Assembly: GCA_050261455.1 (NCBI GenBank)
Contig: JBLNDH010000042.1
Location: forward strand, 1 to 57,103
DNA length: 57,103 nucleotides
Direction of reading: 5' to 3'
From: Bacillota bacterium
Lineage (GTDB): Bacteria; Planctomycetota; Phycisphaerae; Tepidisphaerales; Tepidisphaeraceae
Of the stretch, positions 26,061 through 45,099 are shown in pieces. Each line of letters opens with the position of its first letter. Positions within the stretch are counted from its first letter, which is position 1. The position numbers were made by a program, and so were the translations under genes. The notes beneath the pieces were generated by a model. That model saw only the letters and a program-made list of their open reading frames with translations, had not been told where the DNA came from and searched no databases.

Positions 26061-26086
26061 CAAAAAACCCCTCGTAAAGAGAGGTT
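26061..26086 (-). terminator. Hairpin plus T-run on the minus strand, 49 nt beyond the tRNA-like 3' end
   Basis: Minus-strand aacctctc-tttac-gaggggtt (7/8 bp) followed by ttttttg. Confidence 0.4.
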
Positions 26087-26134
26087 ACAGGAAAGTACTT
26101 TTTCTACACTAAGCCCTTATGGGATAAGGCTTAA

Positions 26135-26160
26135 TGCATCTTGTAGGACTCGAACCTACA
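26135..26160 (-). repeat. att-like direct repeat A: tRNA T-arm + acceptor 3' strand + discriminator (minus-strand sense)
   Basis: tgcaTcttgtaggactcgaacctaca. Its reverse complement is GTAGG-TTCGAGT-CCTAC-AAGATGC-A. It matches 44545-44570 at 25 of 26 positions. No 5' acceptor strand or D-arm lies at the proper distance. Confidence 0.55.
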
Positions 26161-26406
26161 GAGAATCCTGCGATTTCCTCGGAAAAACAGAAGATCCGCT
26201 TGGCCGAGGGTAGCAAATCGGGTAGCAACCTCTCTGATTCGACCGATCTAGACCATGGTTTGCAGGACATGGCGAAGGTATGGGCCAACCTCCCCGAACA
26301 AACCCGGTCCGAAATCCTCGCTTTGATCCAGGCTGCCAAACCCAAGCAAGATCGATAGCCAATCCCCCTCGCCCATCGGCGGCATCCCGGCAACCTGGCG
26401 GAGCCG

Positions 26407-27466: not shown

Positions 27467-28043
27467 GGTTCGCTTTCCTTATGCTTGGACTCGCAAGGTT
27501 CGCCGCTCTGTCCCATGGCCTAGCAATGGTGCAGAGTATGCCTAATGAATCCGAGCGTGGCAAACAAACACATGTTTATACTATAGTCACAATACACGTA
27601 GCATCATCGTTTCACTATACTGCTGGGCATTCGCATGCTCGGCAGTCATCGGGTATGATGTAGCATCCGACGGCAGGATTGCCCCACCCCTCCCCCGGTA
27701 CCACCCTTGAGCTTGGGTCCCATCGGGCAGGATTCCCGTATCTATCATGTCCCGACTATCATGAGATCAACTTTGACAACCTTGACAGCGACTGCTCACC
27801 AGAGTCCGCTGCCATCCATGGCCCCGCTTACGATTCAGCCGAGTCGTAATCAATTCCAGATCGGTACGCAGCACCGAAGCGCAAAACGATATGGCCAATA
27901 TTACATTGCTGCCCCACAATCCCCTGTCGCGAAAACTCGGTTTATTTTACAAGCCGGCCGGAATTTCCTCTAGATAGGGGAGGCTGACGAGCCCCGCGCG
28001 TGTTGCGGGTCGCTACGCAACAGTGTTCTCAACCAGGAGTTTC

Positions 28044-29318
28044 ATGCAACGTCCGCAGAAGCCGTATCCGGAGTTTCCACTGACCGCTTGCACAAACGGA
28101 CAGTGGCGAAAGATCGTCAAGGGCCAGCCCTACTACTTCGGTTCTTGGCGGACCGATCCCAAAGGCGAAAACGCCCTGAGGCTGTGGCTTGCGCGCAAGG
28201 AGGCCATTCTCGCCGGGCTCTACCGCGTGGACACTACCCCGAGCAACACCGCCAATGACCTGACGGTGGGCGAGCTCGTGAACAAATACCTGGCGATCAG
28301 AGGCCGCGACGTGGAGGCGGGCCGTATCGCGCCCGGCACCTACGGCGATTACATGGCCAATCTCAAAGACTTCGCCGACTTTGTTGGCCCCCGCGTGAAA
28401 GTCGCCATCCTCAAGCCGGGGCACTTCTCGGCCTATCGAGCCACCCTCGAATTGCGCAAGCTGGGGGCTCACGCCACCAGGCGGGTGATCGTCAACGTCA
28501 AGACCGCCTTCAAGTACGCCGTGGACGATGGGTGGATCACTTCGATCTGCTTCGGACGCGCATTCGTGGCCCCGCAAACCGATTCCGAAGCCGTGGCCCT
28601 GTCCTGCCTGCGGGCCGGTAAGGAGAACCGCACCGAGCGGATACTGGTCCGGCGCGAGGTCCGGCGGCTTCTTCGGGCCACGACCTTCAAGCCCAAGTGG
28701 CGGGCCATCGTGCTGCTGATGCTCAATGCGGCCATGAACCCCGCGGAAATCGCCCGCCTGAAATGGGCCGAGATCAACTTCAAGAGCGGCCGGCTCCGGC
28801 GTCGGCGGTGGAAGACGGGCATCCTGCAGGAAGCCTATCTCTGGAAGATCACGCGGAAGGCCCTGGAAGCCCTTCCCCGCGACGATGCGGAATGGGTCTT
28901 CGTTCGCCCCAACGGCCAACTGCTCGTGAATACAGAGCCCGTCAAGGGCAAGAAGGGTTCCGGGGAAGAGGCGATCGTGCATATTCGCCGCTCCAACCGC
29001 ATTTCCCGGCCCTTCCGCGATCTGGCGGAGGCCGCCGGCATCGAACGCATCACGCCCTACACCCTGCGTCGCACCGCTCGCACCGTCGCTGCTCATTGTC
29101 CTGATGACAACGCGGCCAAACGAATGATGGGCCAGCGATTGACGGGCCGGGACAATACCTACATCAAGGGCAGGTTCCCCTTGGCCCGACTGAAGGCGAT
29201 CGCCCGGACCCTCCACGATCGTCTGGTTGCGGCAAAGCCACAAGCCCCGAAGGACAAAGGTAGGTCCGGCAACGACGAGAATACCCCAGAGCAAGATAAC
29301 GGCCATTCGGGGCAATAA
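28044..29318 (+). CDS. Tyrosine-recombinase-fold integrase (integrase 2), full length, with apparently non-canonical active-site residues
   Basis: AGGAG RBS 4 nt before ATG 28044. SAM-like domain LTVGELVNKYLAIRGRDVEAGRIAPGTYGDYMANLKDFADFVG. Catalytic-domain pattern ...LNAAMNPAEIARLKWAEINF...RRRRWKTG...ITPYTLRRTARTVAA...MGQRLTGRDNTYIKG. Confidence 0.85.
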   Translation: MQRPQKPYPEFPLTACTNGQWRKIVKGQPYYFGSWRTDPKGENALRLWLARKEAILAGLYRVDTTPSNTANDLTVGELVNKYLAIRGRDVEAGRIAPGTYGDYMANLKDFADFVGPRVKVAILKPGHFSAYRATLELRKLGAHATRRVIVNVKTAFKYAVDDGWITSICFGRAFVAPQTDSEAVALSCLRAGKENRTERILVRREVRRLLRATTFKPKWRAIVLLMLNAAMNPAEIARLKWAEINFKSGRLRRRRWKTGILQEAYLWKITRKALEALPRDDAEWVFVRPNGQLLVNTEPVKGKKGSGEEAIVHIRRSNRISRPFRDLAEAAGIERITPYTLRRTARTVAAHCPDDNAAKRMMGQRLTGRDNTYIKGRFPLARLKAIARTLHDRLVAAKPQAPKDKGRSGNDENTPEQDNGHSGQ

Positions 29319-29337: not shown

Positions 29338-30015
29338 TCAGCACCACGATACTTGGAGACAATGTGGCATCGGGTCGAATTGGCCCTCCTCTTGGTCGAT
29401 AGGCTGCTCATGGAGCAACTCAACATCCCGGTTCTCCAGCCATTTCTTGAGATAGAACGTTCTGAATACCTTCTTGATGAAAGCCGTGAAGCACATGGCC
29501 TCATTCACGTGAAGCCGTGCCTCCTCGAACTGCATATGGAGATGAACTAGCGGGTGGTCCTCGCGTTCTTGTTGCGGATCGAAGTCAAACCGCATGGGGG
29601 ATCGCAGACTAAGCTCACATATGTCTCTCGCGGCTCGTGGCGATTCGATGCACATAGCCAGACCATCACACAAGTCGTTCAAGGTCTCAGCCGGTGACGG
29701 AAACTTCACCGGGCATGGCCAGTACCACAGGGTATGCTCGACGATCGAGTTCCCCTCACAGACGTAGGATGCCCTAACAAGTGAATTATCAAACAGAATG
29801 CAGGTAAACTCGCCGCCCTTGACCCATCCCAGATACTGCTCAAGCGACCCGAAAGGATGCTGATGACCGCTTCCAGCCTCGCTGCTTCTCCACGAAATGC
29901 GGGTTCGGCCGTTAGCTGTGACTTCATGCGGCGTGTTGTAAAACCGCACAAGCTTGATCGCGTATAGGCTCTCGCACGTACTGGCAATGTGCTCGGCTAC
30001 CTGCCTAGCGTTCAT
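29338..30015 (-). CDS. DUF2290-like protein (family assignment from memory)
   Basis: ATG 30015 lies inside the 3' end of the upstream helicase ORF, with an 11-nt overlap. 225 aa. Cys/His-rich core ...WYWPCPVKFPSP...MRFDFDPQQEREDHPLVHLHMQFEEARLHV. Confidence 0.7.
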   Translation of the reverse strand: MNARQVAEHIASTCESLYAIKLVRFYNTPHEVTANGRTRISWRSSEAGSGHQHPFGSLEQYLGWVKGGEFTCILFDNSLVRASYVCEGNSIVEHTLWYWPCPVKFPSPAETLNDLCDGLAMCIESPRAARDICELSLRSPMRFDFDPQQEREDHPLVHLHMQFEEARLHVNEAMCFTAFIKKVFRTFYLKKWLENRDVELLHEQPIDQEEGQFDPMPHCLQVSWC

Positions 30016-31140
30016 CGCGTTCACCACCCTCCTTCAGCGCTCGCAGCAGTTCGCGAAGTTGTGGCATCGCATCGGGCGACAGCACACCTTGGCGGACAAG
30101 TTCGATGACTTCCTCCAGGTTCCGAGCAGCCTTCCGGATCTGTCCCTTTTCCTGTGCGGTACGATCACGGTTGATGCGACGCACCTTCTCCAACTCGGGC
30201 GATGTCGGGATACGGAATCGCAGCTTGAAGTCGCGGCTGGTGACCTGGTCGATTTCCTTCTGGAGCGTCGCCATGCCCTGGCCAATGCCGCAAATTCGCA
30301 CCCAGCAGCGGGAGCGGGTAATCCCTGTGAAAAGCACATTTCGCAAGCGGATCATCTCGTGTCCGGATGCACAGTGATCTGCATTGGCGATGTAGACCAT
30401 GGGTGCTTCGTTGCCCTTCGCCCGGAAGATCCCCGATACCGTGACAGCTCCTGTTTCCATGAAGGAATCTCGGTCGTTCGTGACGCCCGCCAAGTTCGAG
30501 GAGATACCATAGCTGTCGAGATGTCTCCGAAGCGCGTAGTATTCATCCTTCGCGGAGATCGCATTGGGCAGGATGATCAGAATGTCATCCGGATCAAGCT
30601 CATCCTCTGTGATGTTCCTTTTCACTTGGTCGGCAATCCAGACATTCTGCTCGTCACGAGACTGGAATGCCTTCACTGCGACGGCGTCTGCAGGGTCCAG
30701 TAGCTCCGTAAAGATCGTGGGATAAGATCGCGGAGCACGGGAAAGGGTTACAGTTTCCCCTTCGGTAAGGCTTCCGTGCTCTACCTGATATCCGATCTCC
30801 TCCCACATGCTTGGATCGTCGAAATGCTGCACGATGTGTGATTCTCGGAACAGGCCGAATCCTAGAGCATGGGCAAGAGTCAAGGCCCACGGCGTGTTGC
30901 GATAGCACACGGGTAGGATGATGTCGCGCTGCGGAGCCTCAGCGACGTTGGCCAGGCTAATCTCTCGGCCGAACAGATCGGGCGCGGAAGCCATGCTGGC
31001 ATCAGACAGGTTCTGCAACTCATCATACGCCCAAACAATCCGTTTCGGCTGCTTGGTCATTGCGTCCACGATCTGGAAGAAGGTCGGTGGCAGGTCCTGG
31101 GCCTCGTCGATGAGAATGGCATCATACAGGTCGAGTTGAG
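30005..31140 (-). pseudogene. Superfamily-1 (UvrD/COG3972-like) helicase lacking its N-terminal Walker A half
   Basis: The frame is open upstream of the track start and reads LDLYDAILIDEAQDLPPTFFQIVDAMTKQPKRIVWAYDELQNL (motif II DEAQD). Later motifs are VCYRNTPWAL, GIFRAKGNEAPMVYI and NVLFTGITRSRCWVRICG. No GxGKT is present. Upstream sequence switches to a transposase-like frame. Confidence 0.75.
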
Positions 31141-35830: not shown

Positions 35831-36391
35831 TCATTCGTCCGTGTGAACAAGCCGAGTGTACCCGGGTGGCGGCCAAGCCGGCCCACTGCTTTGCGGCGTG
35901 GTTGGGTGATGTCTACGCTGTCGCCTTTCTTGCGGGGGTGGCGGTTGGACCGGCTGCACCGTCAGCAATGCGGCCGGATCGATGCGATAGATCTTCTTGC
36001 GAACCGAGCCGTATTCCAGGGCTGGCAGCTTGCCTCTCTCGATCAGCCTGCGGATGGTCCACCGAGACACACAGGCTCGCTCGGCCGCCTGCCTCTCTGT
36101 CAGCAACTCGCCCCGGCGTTCTGATGCTCCCTCACGTCGCACAACAGGATTCGTGAGGGTCAGTCCGTGAATCTCAATCTGGCCGATCTTCTGGCGCACG
36201 ACCTTGGCCGCAAATTCGTGACCATCGGGCACACGGGCGACGAGTTGGACACGGAACCACTCGGCATCCTCCTTATCGCTCGTGGCGATGTGTTCGCCTC
36301 CATGGGGCAGTTCGCTTAACTCGATCGGCTGGGTTTCCCAGGATCGATCGTCAGATGAATGTATGAGTAAAAGTATCTTCATGGGGAACAT
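35831..36391 (-). CDS. Excisionase/MerR-type HTH_17 DNA-binding protein with an unknown N-terminal domain
   Basis: LTERQAAERACVSRWTIRRLIERGKLPALEYGSVRKKIYRIDPAAL is a typical HTH_17/Xis motif. The tail is Pro-rich. Start is ATG 36391 or 36382 (the track gives TTG 36403). Confidence 0.7.
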   Translation of the reverse strand: MFPMKILLLIHSSDDRSWETQPIELSELPHGGEHIATSDKEDAEWFRVQLVARVPDGHEFAAKVVRQKIGQIEIHGLTLTNPVVRREGASERRGELLTERQAAERACVSRWTIRRLIERGKLPALEYGSVRKKIYRIDPAALLTVQPVQPPPPQERRQRRHHPTTPQSSGPAWPPPGYTRLVHTDE

Positions 36392-36573
36392 ATTATGCCC
36401 CAATGTTCGGCGGCTGAACTCCCTCTAAACCGCACACCAGTATTCGGACGTCCGCATGATGCCGCAACAGTCAAGTTACTCAGCAATGTGCCGATGGCAA
36501 GTCAGGGTCAGCGAATGCCTACCCAACGCCTTCGCTTAGATCCGACTCGCGACGGCAGCCAAAGGAGGCCAAC

Positions 36574-37584: not shown

Positions 37585-37726
37585 TCCCCTTGAACGGTCT
37601 GCCGGGCCACGGTTGAGCTTGCGGGCGATATCGCCGTCTGCCGGCCACTTTGTTATAGGATGCTTGCGAAGCATTTGACACACGCTGCCGCATATTGGAA
37701 CCTTGTTGCAACTAAAAGGAGGTCGT

Positions 37727-38031
37727 ATGAGACAACTGCTGTCGGCTGTCGCTGTGACCGTGGCGATTTTTGTGCGGGCACCGTATCTGCGGACGTGTAC
37801 GTGAGGGGGTATTACCGGCAGAATGGCACTTATGTTCAGCCGTACTACCGGACGGGCCCGGACCAGAACTCCTACAACAATTACAGCACCTACCCCAACA
37901 TCAATCCCTACACTGGGCAGCAGGGCACGCGGTACTATCCGCCCCGCTGGTCCTCTGACCGCGAATCCCGGCCCTCGTTTTCGCAGCCGCAATTGGTCTA
38001 TCCGCGGTATCCCATCTATCGCCGCTACTAG
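37727..38031 (+). pseudogene. Small secreted Tyr/Pro/Asn-rich protein. The signal peptide and mature part are in different frames.
   Basis: AAGGAGG RBS, then ATG 37727 giving MRQLLSAVAVTVAIFV... with a stop 26 codons in. The +1 frame gives ...CAGTVSADVYVRGYYRQNGTYVQPYYRTGPDQNSYNNYSTYPNINPYTGQQGTRYYP, a recurrent small-protein family pattern. The shift lies near the T5/G3 runs at ~37770-37780. Confidence 0.6.
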
Positions 38032-38455
38032 GTGGTCGGACACGCGCCCCTGGCTCGGTGGCCCCCTGCCAGGGGCGTTGCCCCAACTGCTCAACCAACT
38101 CCAACCGCCCCCGGTCTTAAGGCAGGCTCGCCGTGGTGATGGATGCAGTGCCTTGCCCGGAAGCTTCGCGAAAGGGCTGTCTGGGATGTCGTGCAGCTCG
38201 CAGGCTACCAAACTACCTTTTACCCTCTCCGACGCGTCTGCGCTCGAGCTAGGGGCCTCCCTGACGGGGCGTCGGGGCAATGCCGGGTCGATCACTCGCC
38301 TTACGGCCAATGCAAACGATTGCGTGATTGTCGGGGTTGTGAAGGACCCCCTCTTTCAGGCAGACCTCGGGCAACTATTGACCCGTGCAACCCTCCCGCC
38401 TCTCCGCACCTAGCGTCAAAGACGCCAAGACCCCTATTATCCCCAGTCAGTGAAT

Positions 38456-38680
38456 ACCTTTGGATCTAAATTATTATTACTACTACACTTATTCAAAGAT
38501 AATGAGTGAGTATCTTTGATGAGTACCTTTGGGTAATACGGGCATCTTTGGAGTATACGAAGATGCTCATCAAAGCTACTCATGTGCTATCTTTGGGGGA
38601 CCCTTGTAAATACTAGACTTACCTTCAAAGGTGCTCATGGGTGTACGGGTAATAGGAAGACGGACATCTTTGGTGAGCAT
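38456..38680. repeat. AT-rich cluster of at least 9 CTTTG/CAAAG-centred 13-mers in both orientations (operator/iteron-like)
   Basis: agtgagtatctttg, gatgagtacctttg, gcatctttgg, atgctcatcaaag, gctatctttgg, caaaggtgctcat and ctttggtgagcat. The consensus is roughly ATGAG(C/T)A(C/T)CTTTG and its complement. Confidence 0.7.
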
Positions 38681-38963
38681 CTTCGGTCCAGCGCTTCAAC
38701 TGATCGCTGAACGCGTCTCCTCGCCAGTGGCCACCAGATCCATAAGAGGCGAGGACCATGGCTATCGGGTGGCAGCCCCAGCATGCCGCTACATGACACG
38801 GGTCGCACGATCACCATATCCGCCAAGTCCGCAGCCGATCACCTTCCATCACTTCACCACAGAACCACGCTTCAAGACTTCCGCAACATTCTGAGTGTCC
38901 TAGCCTGCATTCGCAGGTCATTCTTTACATGAGTAAACATTGCTGAATTGCAACATCGGAGGA

Positions 38964-39290
38964 TTAAAAACTACGAGATTCTCGAAGATGAACTAATTTG
39001 GGTGCCATAATTAAGATAGAGGAACATTGTGTTTCTAACGCCCGGCCCCGTGCATCGCAGGACGGTAGGCAAGGAGATAACGACTTGAAAACTCACAGAT
39101 TTCTGAAGATGGGTTGATTCATCGTTCATAGTTTAGATGGACACACAGTGTTTCTAACGCCCCCTACCCCCGGCATGGCCGGGCAGCGGGCAAAGAGGAA
39201 GAGGATGGTAATTTAAAAACTAGCAGATTTCCGAAGGTGCGATGAATCGTGTGCCATACTTCGTATGGACAGGCATAGGTATTCGACTCT
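38964..39290 (+). repeat. Three degenerate tandem repeats, period 121-127 bp
   Basis: Units start at 38964 (ttaaaaactacgagattctcgaagatg), 39085 (ttgaaaactcacagatttctgaagatg) and 39212 (tttaaaaactagcagatttccgaaggtg). Shared internal blocks are gccataNttNNgatNga and gtgtttctaacgccc (units 1 and 2). Confidence 0.75.
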
Positions 39291-39475
39291 GGTAGGGTTC
39301 ACTGGTTGTCGCCTGTTGGCCCTGCCCTGAGGCTTTCTGCGTCCCGGCCTATGGCTGTCGGACGCATCGCGGAGAAAGGAGGACTCGATGGACTGGTAGC
39401 CTCAAAGAATGATGCAGAGATTATGGCGTAGGATTGCGACGTTGTCAAACAGAATTTCGAAATCGGAGGAGAGAA

Positions 39476-39715
39476 ATGGATCAGGCAAGTTTGGCTACGA
39501 CGGTGGCGGACCTCTTGAGCGATGCGGAGGCAGCGGCACGGGCGAAGGTTTCAGTAACGTCGATCAGGAACTGGATCAAGCGAGGGAAGTTGTCGGCAGT
39601 AAAACTGGGGTGGGCGATGCGGATCTCACGCAGCGAACTCGACGCTTTCTTGGCGAAGCGTGGCGGCAAAGTGTCCTCGGTGGCCACGGAGGGTACCGCC
39701 GATGAACAACGATAG
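39476..39715 (+). CDS. HTH_17/excisionase-family DNA-binding protein
   Basis: GGAGGAG RBS, then ATG 39476. LLSDAEAAARAKVSVTSIRNWIKRGKLSAVKLGWAMRISRSELDAFL. Its stop overlaps the next gene's start. Confidence 0.75.
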   Translation: MDQASLATTVADLLSDAEAAARAKVSVTSIRNWIKRGKLSAVKLGWAMRISRSELDAFLAKRGGKVSSVATEGTADEQR

Positions 39716-41927
39716 AGATGAGCTGCCGCTAAGCATCGCTTCGAAGCGGGATGACGTACGCAAGTGGCTCGCAGGATTGGCACCGTGGCGCTGCGACGAT
39801 CGGGCGTGCTGGCTCGAAGCCGGTATGGTCCTGCAATGGTGGTCAGCCCAGCTTGCGAGAATCGGGTACGACCTGAGCGACGAGTTGTTGGATTTGTGGG
39901 TTGATTGGAGCAGTCAGAGTACCAAGTTCGTTCCGGGCGAGTGTGAGCGGCAATGGGAAGGTTTCGATGCCAGCCGGCCGAATCCCGCGAAGCTCGGAAC
40001 CCTGGCTGCATGGTACAAGGAGGACCAGCAAGCCCCCGACTCCGCATCAACTGAGCTCCAAGCGGCCCAAGATCAAGCGGAGGACTACGGGGAGCGGATC
40101 AAGACCCTGAATGCGGATGAGGTGAAAGCTCTGTCCGCCAAGCTGAAGATCACGAAGTCGGCCAAGCTCGTGGTGACCCCGACGAAGCCCACCAAGCCTG
40201 CGGCGATCATGACAAAGCCGCCACGGCATACGCCGGGCGTTGGAACACTCGATGCCATGATCGCAGCCACGGCCAAGAAGCTCGGTGCCGTGAAAACGAC
40301 GCCGTACCCCTACCCCGAAAGGCCCGATGGGTCACTACTTTGCCCTGTTCGGTTCGACTTGCCAGACGGGGGCAAGGCATTCTGCCAATTCTCCCGGGGT
40401 GCCGATGGCCAGTGGCGGCGTGGGGGACTGGATGGCCCCAGCCCCCTCTACGATCTGCCGAAGATCAAGGCGGCGGACAAGAGCGTGCCGATCTTCGTTG
40501 TTGAGGGTGAGAAGTGTGCTGGCGCGGGAACCGAAATCGGTCTGTTGACGACAACAACCGCTGGCGGTGCTCAGTCGCCCGGCAAGTCCGATCTAACGCC
40601 ACTGGCCGGCAGAACGATCTACCTCTTGCCGGACGCCGACGAGCCCGGCGAGGCGTATTCGCGGAAGCTGCAGCAGTTATTCGCTGAGCTGAACCCGCAG
40701 CCGAAAGTGAAGGTGATTCGCCTGCCCGGCCTGCCGGCGAAGGGCGACTTATACGATTTTGTCCAGATCCGCAAGGCAGAAGGAAAGACGCCGGAGCAGA
40801 CCAAGGCAGAGATACTAAGCCTGGCGGCATCGGCCGAATTGGTCGATTTGCTGGACTTCAGGGGCCGTCCCCTGCTTCGCCGAGCCTCGGACGTGGAGTA
40901 TCAGCCCATCCGTTGGCTGTGGCCCGGCTTCATCGCTCTGGGCAAGCTAGCTCTACTGGCAAGCGACCCCGGCTGCGGGAAGTCAACTCTGTCCTGTGAT
41001 TTGGCTGCCCGCATCTCGCGGGGTATGCCATGGCCCGATGCCCCCAACAGCCCGAACGAATCCGGCAGCGTCTTGATGCTGAATGTGGAGGACGATGCCA
41101 GTGATACGGTGCGTCCCCGCCTTGAGGCGGCCGGAGCGGACCTAAGCAAGATCACAATCCTCGAAGGAGTTCGGCGTCATGACAAGAACGGGAAAACTCG
41201 GGATGAGATGTTCTGCCTTGAACAGCACCTTCCTGCACTGGAGTCGGCGATCCGCCAGACTTCCGAATGTCGTCTGATTGTGCTCGATCCTCTGGGCGCG
41301 ATCATGGGGCGAACCGACGGCAACAAGAATGAGGAGGTGCGGGGACTGCTCGCACCGCTCGCGGCATTGGCCGCCCGGTACGGCGTGGCGATCCTAGGAA
41401 TCACGCACCTAAACAAAAGCTCCGGCGGATCGGTGGCATATCGCGTGTTGGGCTCAATCGGCTTCACCGCTGCGGCCCGATGCGTCTTCGGTGTGGCACG
41501 CGATCGTCAGGACCCGACGCGGCGGCTGTTCGTCCCCCTCAAGTCCAACATCGCCGTCGACACCCACACGTTAGCGTACAAGTTGGAGGAATCCAGCATT
41601 CCTGGGATCGCTCGCCTTCGATGGGAGAGTGTTCCCGTCGATATCCGCCCGGAGGATGCGTTTGGAGATGCAGCCAACTCCACTCCCACCAAGACCGACC
41701 AAGCGGGTGAATGGCTTCGCGAAGCTCTGGCCGAAGGCGAAGTTCCCAGCGAAGAGGTTTTCCGTAAGGGTCGCCGAGACGGATTCGCCGTCAGTGCCAT
41801 CCGCCGAGCTGCAGAAGCCCTCGGTGTGCGGGCACGAAAGCGGGGATTCCAAGGCCCCTGGGTGTGGAGGCTACCTGCTGGTGACGGAAACGACACCGAC
41901 CAAGATGCCAGTCCCAAGGCAGATTAG
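39702..41927 (+). CDS. Primase-helicase fusion: PriCT-2-like region + Toprim + AAA_25/RepA-type (RecA-fold) ATPase
   Basis: ATG 39702 overlaps the upstream stop. CDDRACWLEAGMVLQWW...LWVDWSSQSTKFVPGECERQWEGF (PriCT-2-like). IFVVEGEKCAGAG...IYLLPDADEPGEAY (Toprim). LLASDPGCGKSTLSCDLAARIS (Walker A). LIVLDPL (Walker B). Confidence 0.9.
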   Translation: MNNDRDELPLSIASKRDDVRKWLAGLAPWRCDDRACWLEAGMVLQWWSAQLARIGYDLSDELLDLWVDWSSQSTKFVPGECERQWEGFDASRPNPAKLGTLAAWYKEDQQAPDSASTELQAAQDQAEDYGERIKTLNADEVKALSAKLKITKSAKLVVTPTKPTKPAAIMTKPPRHTPGVGTLDAMIAATAKKLGAVKTTPYPYPERPDGSLLCPVRFDLPDGGKAFCQFSRGADGQWRRGGLDGPSPLYDLPKIKAADKSVPIFVVEGEKCAGAGTEIGLLTTTTAGGAQSPGKSDLTPLAGRTIYLLPDADEPGEAYSRKLQQLFAELNPQPKVKVIRLPGLPAKGDLYDFVQIRKAEGKTPEQTKAEILSLAASAELVDLLDFRGRPLLRRASDVEYQPIRWLWPGFIALGKLALLASDPGCGKSTLSCDLAARISRGMPWPDAPNSPNESGSVLMLNVEDDASDTVRPRLEAAGADLSKITILEGVRRHDKNGKTRDEMFCLEQHLPALESAIRQTSECRLIVLDPLGAIMGRTDGNKNEEVRGLLAPLAALAARYGVAILGITHLNKSSGGSVAYRVLGSIGFTAAARCVFGVARDRQDPTRRLFVPLKSNIAVDTHTLAYKLEESSIPGIARLRWESVPVDIRPEDAFGDAANSTPTKTDQAGEWLREALAEGEVPSEEVFRKGRRDGFAVSAIRRAAEALGVRARKRGFQGPWVWRLPAGDGNDTDQDASPKAD

Positions 41928-43470: not shown

Positions 43471-43794
43471 ATGAGAGTGCCTATTAGTCTAAAAGACCTA
43501 TTGGAGCGAGAAGGGCTAACTGAGGCGGATGTCGTGTTCGTAGGGCAGCCCGCACAGCCCCACGAATCCGCCACACCGCAACGGGAAATTCGCTTGGATG
43601 AGTTGCTCCGGCAAGCGGGTACCTCCGAATACGCTATTCAGCGTTCGCCGGCTGCGGTGGCGACACCTCAACAGGGAATTCCGCTTGATCAATTGCTGGC
43701 TCAAGCGGGCCAGTCGGCTCCAGACTTCCTTAGCGACGATCAGATAAGCCGCATGGGCGGCGAACCAAGGGGCGCCGAGCACGCCGGGCGTTGA
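43471..43794 (+). CDS. Small hypothetical protein with three (I/L)xLxxLL(x)xxG repeats
   Basis: AAGGAGG RBS, then ATG 43471. ISLKDLLEREG, EIRLDELLRQAG and GIPLDQLLAQAG. Its 3' end runs into the truncated integrase 3. Confidence 0.55.
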   Translation: MRVPISLKDLLEREGLTEADVVFVGQPAQPHESATPQREIRLDELLRQAGTSEYAIQRSPAAVATPQQGIPLDQLLAQAGQSAPDFLSDDQISRMGGEPRGAEHAGR

Positions 43795-44510
43795 CCCCGG
43801 AGCAGGTGATTGCCCTTCTGGATAAGGTGCCACAAAATCACCGACCCGTTTACCGGTTCATCCTCGGCACTGGCCTACGCCGGCAAGAGGCTGTGGACCT
43901 TATTTGGGGCGATGTGCATCTGGACTCGCCCACACCGTTTCTAGCCTTGCGAGCCAAGGCAACGAAGGCACGGCGAGCTGATACGTTGCCCCTGCGGGCG
44001 GACATAGCAACCGAATTGAAGCAATTGCGTGGCGATGCGAACGACGCGGATAGCGTCTTCCCTGCCTTCCCCAGCATGGCCGAGCATCGGGGGTACCTCA
44101 AGGCCGCAGGCATCCCATGGGAGGACGAACAAGGTCGCCGGGCTGACTTCCACGCTTTGAGGCATACCTATGGCACACTGCTGAGCAAGGCTGGCGTGTC
44201 GCCCCGTGAAGCCATGGAACTGATGCGCCACACCGATCTTCGCTTGACCATGAAGGTATATACCGACCCCCGATTGTTCGATTTGGCCGGAGCGGTCGAG
44301 AAACTCCCCTTGCCCACTTTCAAGCCGGCCGCCATTGCCCAGCAAGCGAACGGGACCGATGGGAAGGCTATTAATCAGGATATTGCTTCCGTACAGGTAG
44401 CAGATCGGGTAGCAACTGCTACCCTTCATGGCCCCTCACTACCCCCAATGGCGCGATCATCCGCGTCCGATAATACCGCCGTAAATGCTGGTGCTGCCCC
44501 TAACTGCAAA

Positions 44511-44540
44511 CAAAAACCCCCGATCGTCATTGACCGGGGG
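44511..44540 (-). terminator. Rho-independent terminator 4 nt after the tRNA-like 3' end (minus strand)
   Basis: Minus-strand cccccg-gtcaatgacgat-cggggg followed by tttttg. Confidence 0.55.
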
Positions 44541-44544
44541 TTAG

Positions 44545-44592
44545 TGCACCTTGTAGGACTCGAACCTACAACCTACGGCTCCGTAGGCTCCC
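44545..44592 (-). repeat. att-like direct repeat B: 3' ~48 nt of a tRNA (variable-arm-like hairpin, T-arm, acceptor 3' strand)
   Basis: The reverse complement reads gggagCCTACGGagCCGTAGGtt-GTAGG-TTCGAGT-CCTAC-AAGGTGC-A. No complementary 5' acceptor strand (gcacctt) occurs within 100 nt upstream. The core matches 26135-26160. Confidence 0.6.
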
Positions 44593-44604
44593 GTCAGCAA
44601 ACAC

Positions 44605-45099
44605 ATGACTTCGCAATCAGGGTATAATCACATCGAGTGGCATCCCATCGATAACGCGGTAAGATTGCCCCTCAATATGACGACACGCCGCAATTATTCA
44701 TCCCTGTGCAAGGACCCACATTGCTTCGATGCGGTCAGCGTGAATGGCATCGACTATGTCATTCCGGCACGACCTGGCTCAATGTTCTGGGCCGTGCTGC
44801 GTGTTCTTTACGAACGCTGCAACCAGGCGGTTTTCCCCGAGCAACTCGCAGTGGCCGTGCAGGCGTTGATGTTGGACAGGAATCCGAGAGCTTGGCAGAC
44901 GCACTGCGAACGGCCGAACAGGAAGCCCTGGAAAGAGCGTCTGATGATGACGGCGATGATGCTCACCAGGTCCAGCGGGAATGATCCTGACGGCCTGCGA
45001 CTGGCTGAGCGGGGGCATTTGCTACGCTTGGAACACGACGCCGAAGGGCGGGCGTATTTCATCCTCCGAACCAACGTGGACGCCCCGCTGGACCTTTGA
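44605..45099 (+). CDS. Hypothetical protein (start uncertain: ATG 44605 or 44677)
   Basis: 164-aa ORF. ...CFDAVSVNGIDYVIPARPGSMFWAVLRVLYERCNQAVFPEQLAVAVQALMLDRNPRAWQTHCERPNRKPWKERL...AEGRAYFILRTNV. The composition is protein-like. I recognise no family. Confidence 0.5.
   Translation: MTSQSGYNHIEWHPIDNAVRLPLNMTTRRNYSSLCKDPHCFDAVSVNGIDYVIPARPGSMFWAVLRVLYERCNQAVFPEQLAVAVQALMLDRNPRAWQTHCERPNRKPWKERLMMTAMMLTRSSGNDPDGLRLAERGHLLRLEHDAEGRAYFILRTNVDAPLDL

Follow-up and report, generated by a model that had tools for sequence, protein, structure and literature searches.

Three direct repeats stand on the plus strand of contig JBLNDH010000042.1 (57,103 nucleotides [nt], the whole of which was analyzed and is called the window here), between position 38964 and about position 39400, just ahead of an operon for a small helix-turn-helix (HTH) protein and a primase-helicase. 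The repeats are far above chance and are unique to this locus. We tentatively read them as a lineage-specific tandem triplication of a promoter/operator-leader module of about 125 bp, which would work at the level of DNA, by binding protein, within the region that controls a primase-helicase island. We hold this reading to be possible rather than probable.

The repeat itself, its parts, and its position are plain. We searched the window for the 27-nt head motif TTRAAAACT-N3-AGATTTC-N-GAAGRTG, allowing up to 3 mismatches, and found three sites, all on the plus strand (38964-38990, 39085-39111, and 39213-39239); dinucleotide shuffles of the window gave 0 matches. A repeat finder returned ungapped 59-nt copies with 61 to 71% identity at spacings of 121 and 128 nt. 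When every pair of spacings from 60 to 200 nt was tried across the 1.06-kb noncoding gap that holds the units, the best triple window had 32 of 59 columns invariant, again at spacings of 121 and 128 nt, against 15 to 17 invariant columns in dinucleotide shuffles of the same region (n = 40). Comparison of the region with itself by blastn gave E values of 1.8e-5 and 3e-3. With nhmmer, a profile of the three blocks recovered only these three in the window (E = 1e-14 to 6e-12), and it found no fourth copy either there or in any of the relatives' loci that we fetched. Tandem Repeats Finder did not report the array, because the identity is too low. A second block, TTTCTAACGCCC, is common to units 1 and 2, and its diverged copy in unit 3 is shifted by 64 nt.

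The initial annotation had proposed three degenerate tandem repeats beginning at 38964, 39085, and 39212, and motif search, shuffles, and self-comparison all bear out the triplication. The third unit, however, starts at 39213, so that the periods are 121 and 128 nt rather than 121 and 127. Nor does it end at 39290, as had been thought: its copy of the TTTCT..CG.CCCGGCC block lies at 39334-39349, past an insertion of about 64 nt, and its hairpin and purine tail carry it to about 39400. The parts of the units are as follows.

38964-39084 (121 nt), plus strand: unit 1, with its head at 38964-38990, a dyad at 38966-38982, and a copy of the core of the upstream iterons, CATCTTCG (minus orientation), at 38983-38990.
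39003-39077, plus strand: remainder of unit 1, with the extended -10-like element TGcCATAAT at 39003-39011, GTGTTTCTAACGCCC at 39029-39043, a GC-rich hairpin at about 39045-39070, and an AAGGAGA tail at 39071-39077.
39085-39212 (128 nt), plus strand: unit 2, with its head at 39085-39111 (first triplet TTG, not TTA), a dyad at 39087-39103, and the core CATCTTCA at 39104-39111.
39127-39208, plus strand: remainder of unit 2, with CATAGT at 39127-39132, GTGTTTCTAACGCCC at 39148-39162, the hairpin CCCGGC-ATG-GCCGGG at 39169-39183, and a purine tail at 39192-39208.
39213-39400 (about 188 nt, including the insertion of about 64 nt), plus strand: unit 3, with its head at 39213-39239, a dyad at 39215-39231, and the core CACCTTCG at 39232-39239.
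39252-39333, plus strand: middle of unit 3, with TGcCATACT at 39252-39260, the palindrome CCATAC-TTC-GTATGG (39254-39268) overlapping it, and the insertion at about 39272-39333.
39334-39399, plus strand: end of unit 3, with TTTCTGCGTCCCGGCC at 39334-39349, a 12-bp hairpin at 39338-39366, the tail GGAGAAAGGAGGA at 39371-39383, and then ATG GAC TGG TAG at 39388-39399.

Counting offsets from the first base of the head, positions 3 to 19 form an imperfect operator-like dyad, RAAAACT-N3-AGATTTY, with 10 bp between the centers of its half-sites. Since the head differs from its reverse complement at 2 to 3 positions, it is dyadic. Offsets 20 to 27 are, in each unit, the reverse complement of the 8-nt iteron core (CAYCTTCR). 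At offsets 40 to 48 stand TGcCATAAT, gttCATAGT, and TGcCATACT, which share a -10-like hexamer, CATAnT, with A2, T3, A4, and T6 invariant. The "gccata" block that had been assigned to every unit is present in units 1 and 3, while unit 2 has "ttcata" instead. A GC-rich hairpin follows the GTGTTTCTAACGCCC-type block in all three units; its sequence differs from unit to unit, and it has no T-run. Each unit then ends in a purine-rich, Shine-Dalgarno-like tail (AAGGAGA in unit 1, GAGGAAGAGGA in unit 2, GGAGAAAGGAGGA in unit 3); in units 2 and 3, ATGG comes next, with a stop 2 to 3 codons on. The GGAGG-like purine tract said to precede each unit is real on direct reading.

Conservation is uneven along the unit. 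Of the 27 head positions, 21 do not vary, and the GTGTTTCTAACGCCC block is identical in units 1 and 2 (39029-39043 and 39148-39162), as the initial annotation had noticed; the intervening 32 nt are only 50 to 62% identical. Entire triplets vary between invariant blocks, a pattern of protein-binding sites, without codon periodicity.

The resemblance extends beyond the units to the start of the operon that they precede. A 19-nt element, picked up by repeat-family detection, occurs twice, and the second copy lies at the start of the first gene.

38945-38963, plus strand: 19-nt element GAATTGCAACATCGGAGGA, directly 5' of unit 1.
39452-39470, plus strand: second copy of the element, GAATTTCGAAATCGGAGGA, the Shine-Dalgarno region of the HTH_17 gene.
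39476-39715, plus strand: HTH_17 (excisionase/MerR-like) protein of 79 amino acids, the first gene after the units, matching phrog_66 (1.2e-10) and PF12728.
39702-41927, plus strand: primase-helicase of 741 amino acids with PriCT_2 and AAA_25 domains, overlapping the end of the HTH gene.
Right of the primase-helicase and before a second integrase: DUF3987 protein.

The two copies of the 19-nt element are 84% identical, and both contain ATCGGAGGA. The antisense of the copy at 38945-38963 would pair with the copy at 39452-39470. Like the 19-mer before unit 1, the unit tails resemble the Shine-Dalgarno-N6-ATGG start region of the HTH gene. What was duplicated therefore seems to be a stretch reaching from an operator, across a leader, as far as the first gene's ribosome-binding site and start. 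The units end 76 nt before the HTH-primase operon and have the same orientation, and the PriCT_2 and AAA_25 primase-helicase and the DUF3987 protein confirm that a replication module lies downstream, as had been predicted.

We propose that each unit would consist of an operator-like dyad, a copy of the iteron core, the CATAnT hexamer, a short leader with a GC hairpin, and a tail that looks like a Shine-Dalgarno sequence and reproduces the ribosome-binding region of the HTH gene downstream. Half-sites 10 bp apart would fit a dimeric helix-turn-helix protein. A start predicted about 7 nt past the hexamer would put the dyad center about 44 bp upstream, as in an activator-dependent promoter; class II activators bind near -44. 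Three nested rightward promoters/operators would then feed the operon from HTH_17 through the primase-helicase to DUF3987, under the control of a DNA-binding protein of the island, and a strong convergent minus-strand promoter (39448-39420) would oppose them. Protein binding, promotion of transcription, and its direction are what we infer here from the letters of the DNA.

The surroundings count in favor of this proposal. The units fill the right half of a 1,062-bp gap, between 38413 and the HTH gene, that has no coding signal, with a terminator-like hairpin and an iteron cluster upstream and the first gene of the replication operon downstream. We scanned both strands for promoters with E. coli hexamer frequencies, spacer penalties, and a bonus for a TG extension. 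The unit 1 candidate, TCGAAG-18-TGcCATAAT, ranks in the top 0.05% of window positions, and no other plus-strand candidate between the terminator-like hairpin and the HTH gene scores as well. All three hexamers (CATAAT, CATAGT, and CATACT) have the A2 and T6 expected of a sigma-70 -10 element, at the same offset. The TG extension precedes CATAnT in units 1 and 3 and not in unit 2. In the locus of a relative with the same type of operon (L261), a TTGCAC-17-CATAGT promoter stops 6 nt (aggggt) short of the ATG; CATAGT-type -10 elements are therefore plausible in this group. The end of the L261 promoter so close to the ATG suggests a leaderless transcript there.

Several points weigh against a promoter/operator array. 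Unit 2 scores in the top 0.46% and unit 3 below the 99th percentile, both unremarkable, and the -35 hexamers match at no more than 3 of 6 positions in all three units. The weight matrix is that of E. coli and may not suit this phylum. The dyad occurs nowhere else in the island, and the strongest promoter of the window points the opposite way, through the units. The collections searched hold no homologue that could show constraint on the units, and with three paralogues, constraint is not separable from recent duplication or gene conversion. We found no sequencing run that holds the locus, and the contigs of four soil metagenomes with related DNA do not cover the units. Support for a promoter appears moderate in unit 1 and weak in units 2 and 3. 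Among the three options that the initial annotation had offered, small RNAs, repeated promoter/operator units, and part of an origin, the second has the most sequence support, which is nevertheless modest.

Tandem or duplicated promoter-operator arrays are found in the control regions of phages and mobile elements, and the face-to-face promoters of P2 and 186 are an example. The units are like these arrays in lying between an origin/operator cluster and an early replication operon, in having an operator-like dyad about 44 bp before the predicted start, and in facing a strong convergent promoter. They differ in their long period of 121 to 128 bp, in their poor -35, and in that each has a leader hairpin and a Shine-Dalgarno-like tail of its own; the array here is a predicted one.

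Three further signals in the gap bear on the competing explanations.

38448-38687, both orientations: iteron cluster, 10 to 11 copies of (R)TGAGYAYCTTTGR (13 to 17 nt), three as adjacent 13-nt tandem pairs.
38903-38928, plus strand: terminator-like hairpin GCCTGC-ATTC-GCAGGT with a T-rich tail, 36 nt 5' of unit 1.
39420-39448, minus strand: sigma-70-like promoter TTGACA-17-CATAAT, an 11/12 match, directed leftward into units 3, 2, and 1.

The terminator-like hairpin is weak: there is 1 such site, and 1.7 are expected by chance in 2 kb. The minus-strand promoter scores 16.4, in the top 0.001% of 114,134 positions, and is the best sigma-70-like match in the window. It stands back-to-back with the ribosome-binding site of the HTH gene and has about 1 kb of noncoding DNA to its left.

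Such a promoter raises the question of whether the units are transcribed leftward. They could be repeated modules of a noncoding RNA in copy-number or immunity control, with a role like that of the P4 CI RNA, either as a minus-strand antisense transcript from 39448-39420 or as the plus-strand leader itself. We find this doubtful. The best sigma-70-like promoter of the window leads into the units and then into about 1 kb without coding potential, and a GC-rich hairpin occurs at the homologous place in every unit despite the differing sequences. In an RNA read from the minus strand, four pyrimidine tracts would be complementary to Shine-Dalgarno sequences; one such tract is the 19-mer, which matches the complement of the ribosome-binding site of the HTH gene at 16 of 19 positions. 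Comparison of units 2 and 3 yields a single possible compensatory change, GCCC/GGGC to GUCC/GGAC, seen among three paralogues only, which is too little to argue for RNA structure.

Set against this, Rfam gave no family, either at gathering thresholds over the whole window or at E < 10, where it returned chance hairpin matches only and none on the units above noise. Whole units with their tails fold within the range of dinucleotide shuffles on both strands (z = -1.3 to +0.65). The head, the most conserved part, lies outside any stable stem. The unit hairpins have no T-run, though canonical terminators occur elsewhere in this genome; we considered and rejected intrinsic terminators on either strand of the units, since the stems are too weak or lack a T-run. 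The earlier suggestion of a family of small RNAs is therefore unsupported by family matches, by folding, or by terminators of the type this genome uses, and beyond the strong leftward promoter nothing appears to speak for an RNA function.

The P4 immunity leader is one comparison. Its CI RNA, with seqA, seqB, and seqC, relies on the complementarity of seqB to seqA and seqC. In both cases an island with a primase has short repeated sequences in untranslated DNA that precedes its replication genes. The units, however, are all direct repeats on the plus strand with no inverted copy, and the only reverse-strand matches are the dyad itself, so that the complementary logic of seqA, seqB, and seqC is absent. 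A more specific version would make the units three domains of a noncoding RNA that controls replication or immunity of the island, most likely a leftward transcript from the near-consensus promoter at 39448-39420, antisense to the operon leader. Its role would be that of P4 CI RNA or of a plasmid copy-control RNA, its modular architecture unrelated to theirs; we think this unlikely.

The iteron cluster invites another explanation, in which the units would act in cis on replication as the P4 cis replication region (crr) does, bound by the initiator and cooperating with an iteron origin at 38448-38687. We give this little credence. Under the iteron weight matrix, 10 sites of the cluster score 16 to 21 bits, against at most 12 elsewhere in the window, and statistically the cluster is far stronger than anything within the units. 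Just before the iterons lies TTATCCCCA (38437-38445), 8 of whose 9 positions agree with the DnaA-box consensus, and an AT-rich tract covers 38462-38505. The cluster looks like the likely origin of replication of the island or a dense operator array. It lies 280 to 500 bp upstream of the units.

What connects the units to it is the 8-mer YAYCTTYR. The window has 35 matches to it, of which the gap contains 14: the cluster accounts for 11, and each unit has one, always at the same offset. The initial annotation's "part of an origin" therefore holds for the region, which has an origin-like iteron cluster, and fails for the units as iterons, which share only the 8-nt core. Under the full 17-nt matrix the units reach no notable score, 7.6 bits at most, against 16 to 21 for true iterons, and by a rough post hoc estimate, chance would place an 8-mer of this kind in a 27-nt motif in about 1 of 100 cases. 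Iteron-type origins have repeats of 8 to 22 bp closely spaced in helical phase; the units recur every 121 to 128 bp.

In the annotated record of satellite phage P4, a pair of 120-bp direct repeats adjoins the primase gene, and the earlier remark that no analogous structure is recognizable was thus too strong. As in P4 crr, the units are noncoding direct repeats of about 120 bp (121 and 128 bp here) that begin with an A/T tract (an A-tract here) and neighbor the primase-helicase gene of an integrative element. Here an iteron cluster stands 280 bp from the units; both elements have an integrase, a small excisionase-like HTH protein heading the replication operon, and an iteron-type origin ahead of the HTH gene. 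The P4 annotation likewise places the origin iterons upstream of a small excisionase-like gene that heads the primase operon. When we aligned the P4 crr repeats, they began with an A6T8 tract, and their conserved blocks were 8-bp iterons of the origin type, five full ones per repeat. A unit here has a single 8-nt core of a 13- to 17-nt iteron, so the defining feature of crr, several full iterons per repeat, is missing. The P4 repeats are two copies 60 bp apart, downstream of the primase gene, whereas the units are three, contiguous, and upstream of the operon. The primase-helicase is also of another family, PriCT_2/AAA_25 rather than the P4 alpha type.

The units may also be functionless remains of a tandem duplication, by slippage or unequal recombination, in a decaying island, with blocks that reflect recent origin or gene conversion rather than selection. 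This seems improbable to us. The island does show signs of decay: the integrase at 43791-44627 lacks an N-terminal domain, and the helicase next to a DUF2290 gene matches only the C-terminal half of its model. It is an orphan without close relatives, unit 3 has taken up a 64-nt insertion, and relatives do without such units. Divergence between the copies is nevertheless very uneven, with 21 of 27 head positions unchanged and a 15-nt block identical in units 1 and 2, against 50 to 62% identity in between, and the dyad, CATAnT, and the stop- and start-like triplets are kept in all three copies.

It is very improbable that each unit encodes a very small peptide, either from a 14-codon minus-strand open reading frame (ORF), M-x5-HL(R/Q)(E/K)SxSF-stop, or from a 10-codon plus-strand frame, (M/L)KTxRFxK(M/V)x-stop. 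On the minus strand, the ATG is invariant in the three units, units 1 and 3 have a TAA stop at corresponding positions, and two changes are synonymous (CAT/CAC and CGA/CGG); on the plus strand, unit 2 has AAGGAG-N8-TTG, and all three frames stop at codon 11. Variable sites in the 14-codon ORF, however, number 7, 6, and 7 at codon positions 1, 2, and 3, a spread without a coding signature; no Shine-Dalgarno sequence accompanies the minus-strand ATGs, and in unit 2 the frame runs on, with CAA in place of the stop. In units 1 and 3 the plus-strand frame lacks a start codon and opens with TTA instead, start codons upstream differ between units, and the unit lengths of 121 and 128 shift the frame from one unit to the next. 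We thus agree with the initial annotation that the units are not genes: upstream starts differ, two of three plus-strand frames open with TTA, and there is no third-position excess.

Other identities were tried and rejected. Integrase arm sites do not apply, since the ends of the island, like its arm-like repeats, lie elsewhere, at 26.1 and 44.4-44.6 kb. Integron attC sites misfit at the core sites, and there is no IntI. ToxI-like type III antitoxin repeats are about 36 nt, near-identical, and accompanied by an endoribonuclease toxin gene; the units are 121 to 188 nt and 61 to 71% identical, and the next gene is HTH_17. Patterns of ECF, sigma-54, and sigma-28 promoters did not fit by eye, and no tRNA or transfer-messenger RNA (tmRNA) was found. 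AlpA-type antitermination was rejected as well: Pseudomonas AlpA has contact residues beyond position 140 and recognizes GGGACG between -35 and -10 (PMC9371919), whereas the HTH protein here has 79 residues.

We looked for relatives of the units in several collections. By blastn, phage and plasmid collections held no homologue. Scans of genome, viral, and metagenome contigs for the head motif gave, among the matches listed, only single ones in unrelated AT-rich genomes, and those inspected were in coding DNA; a scan with a second composite pattern gave one chance match. The primase-helicase has no relative above 43% identity, its nearest ones being in Planctomycetota assemblies (Pirellulales and Phycisphaerales, 36 to 43% identity), and a search of 5.8 billion proteins with the HTH protein returned no match but the protein itself. 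The loci of distant relatives hold no similar DNA, no head motif, and no 125-bp repeats. Soil metagenomes hold related chromosomal DNA, and in four of them, the only match to this region was a 202-nt contig (run X2), 80% identical to the HTH_17 gene (39499-39691), with nothing over the units. Diverged relatives of the orphan island thus exist in nature, while no collection searched has a homologue of the units; the locus is an orphan case.

Two of the distant relatives' islands, L261 and L266, are informative for what they have in place of the units. They share the gene order of a small HTH_17 gene, an AAA_25 primase-helicase, and an integrase, with short repeats directly upstream of the HTH_17-primase operon: TCAAATCGC four times in L261 (4500-4600) and GCGCGAAC about six times, in both orientations, in L266 (4590-4740). 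These are 8- to 9-nt iterons in gaps of 90 to 190 bp, and there are no 125-bp modules and no head motif. Since these relatives and P4 carry iterons upstream of the operon, the iteron cluster is an expected feature, and the 125-bp units are a lineage-specific extra between cluster and operon. Regulatory DNA directly upstream of the relatives' operons, without such units, likewise marks the triplication as a local expansion.

The window is a piece of chromosome and not a phage genome; its large genes encode glycoside hydrolases, esterases, an acetyl-CoA synthetase-like enzyme, and similar functions. It comes from a soil bacterium and is probably of planctomycete origin. Integrated islands equipped with a primase-helicase of their own are common among uncultivated phyla, Planctomycetota included. 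This island is about 18.4 kb long and is edged by 33-nt imperfect direct repeats at 26128-26160 and 44538-44570. The edge repeats look like the 3' half of a tRNA gene (T-arm plus acceptor end) on the minus strand; ARAGORN found no intact tRNA. Near the island ends, GGTAGCARATCGGGTAGCAAC repeats (26209-26229 and 44396-44416) look like arm-type sites of an integrase. Beside both edge repeats, at about 26065-26095 and 44505-44535 on the minus strand, stand canonical intrinsic terminators with a GC stem followed by 5 to 6 T; this genome thus uses T-run terminators, unlike the unit hairpins. The remaining genes of the island are listed here.

28023-29318: island integrase, the leftmost gene listed.
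29338-31069, minus strand: DUF2290 protein and helicase; the helicase matches the PADLOC model of the helicase that goes with DUF2290 only at 353-694 of 707 (C-terminal half).
35831-36403: second HTH_17 protein.
Left of the gap, plus strand: small genes, the last ending at 38413.
43791-44627: second integrase.

The DUF2290 protein and its helicase are a candidate anti-phage defense pair that seems truncated. Among the small genes, 37660-38031 encodes a Tyr/Asn/Pro-rich protein of 123 amino acids with very high third-position GC, which matches phrog_29674 (function unassigned) at E = 1.3e-11. The second integrase matches its catalytic-domain profile from the first residue and is therefore without an N-terminal domain. 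An ORF of 107 amino acids (43471-43794) overlaps its start by 4 nt, and the integrase gene may be frameshifted or split.

As a single orphan case, this locus is of limited general importance for now. Its layout is clear: an iteron cluster, three 125-bp modules, a strong convergent promoter, and the HTH-primase operon. If the modules are inert, the locus is a snapshot of a tandem duplication in regulatory DNA. If they are promoters/operators or a crr-like enhancer, they would extend P4-type logic to an unrelated family of replication proteins and to another phylum.

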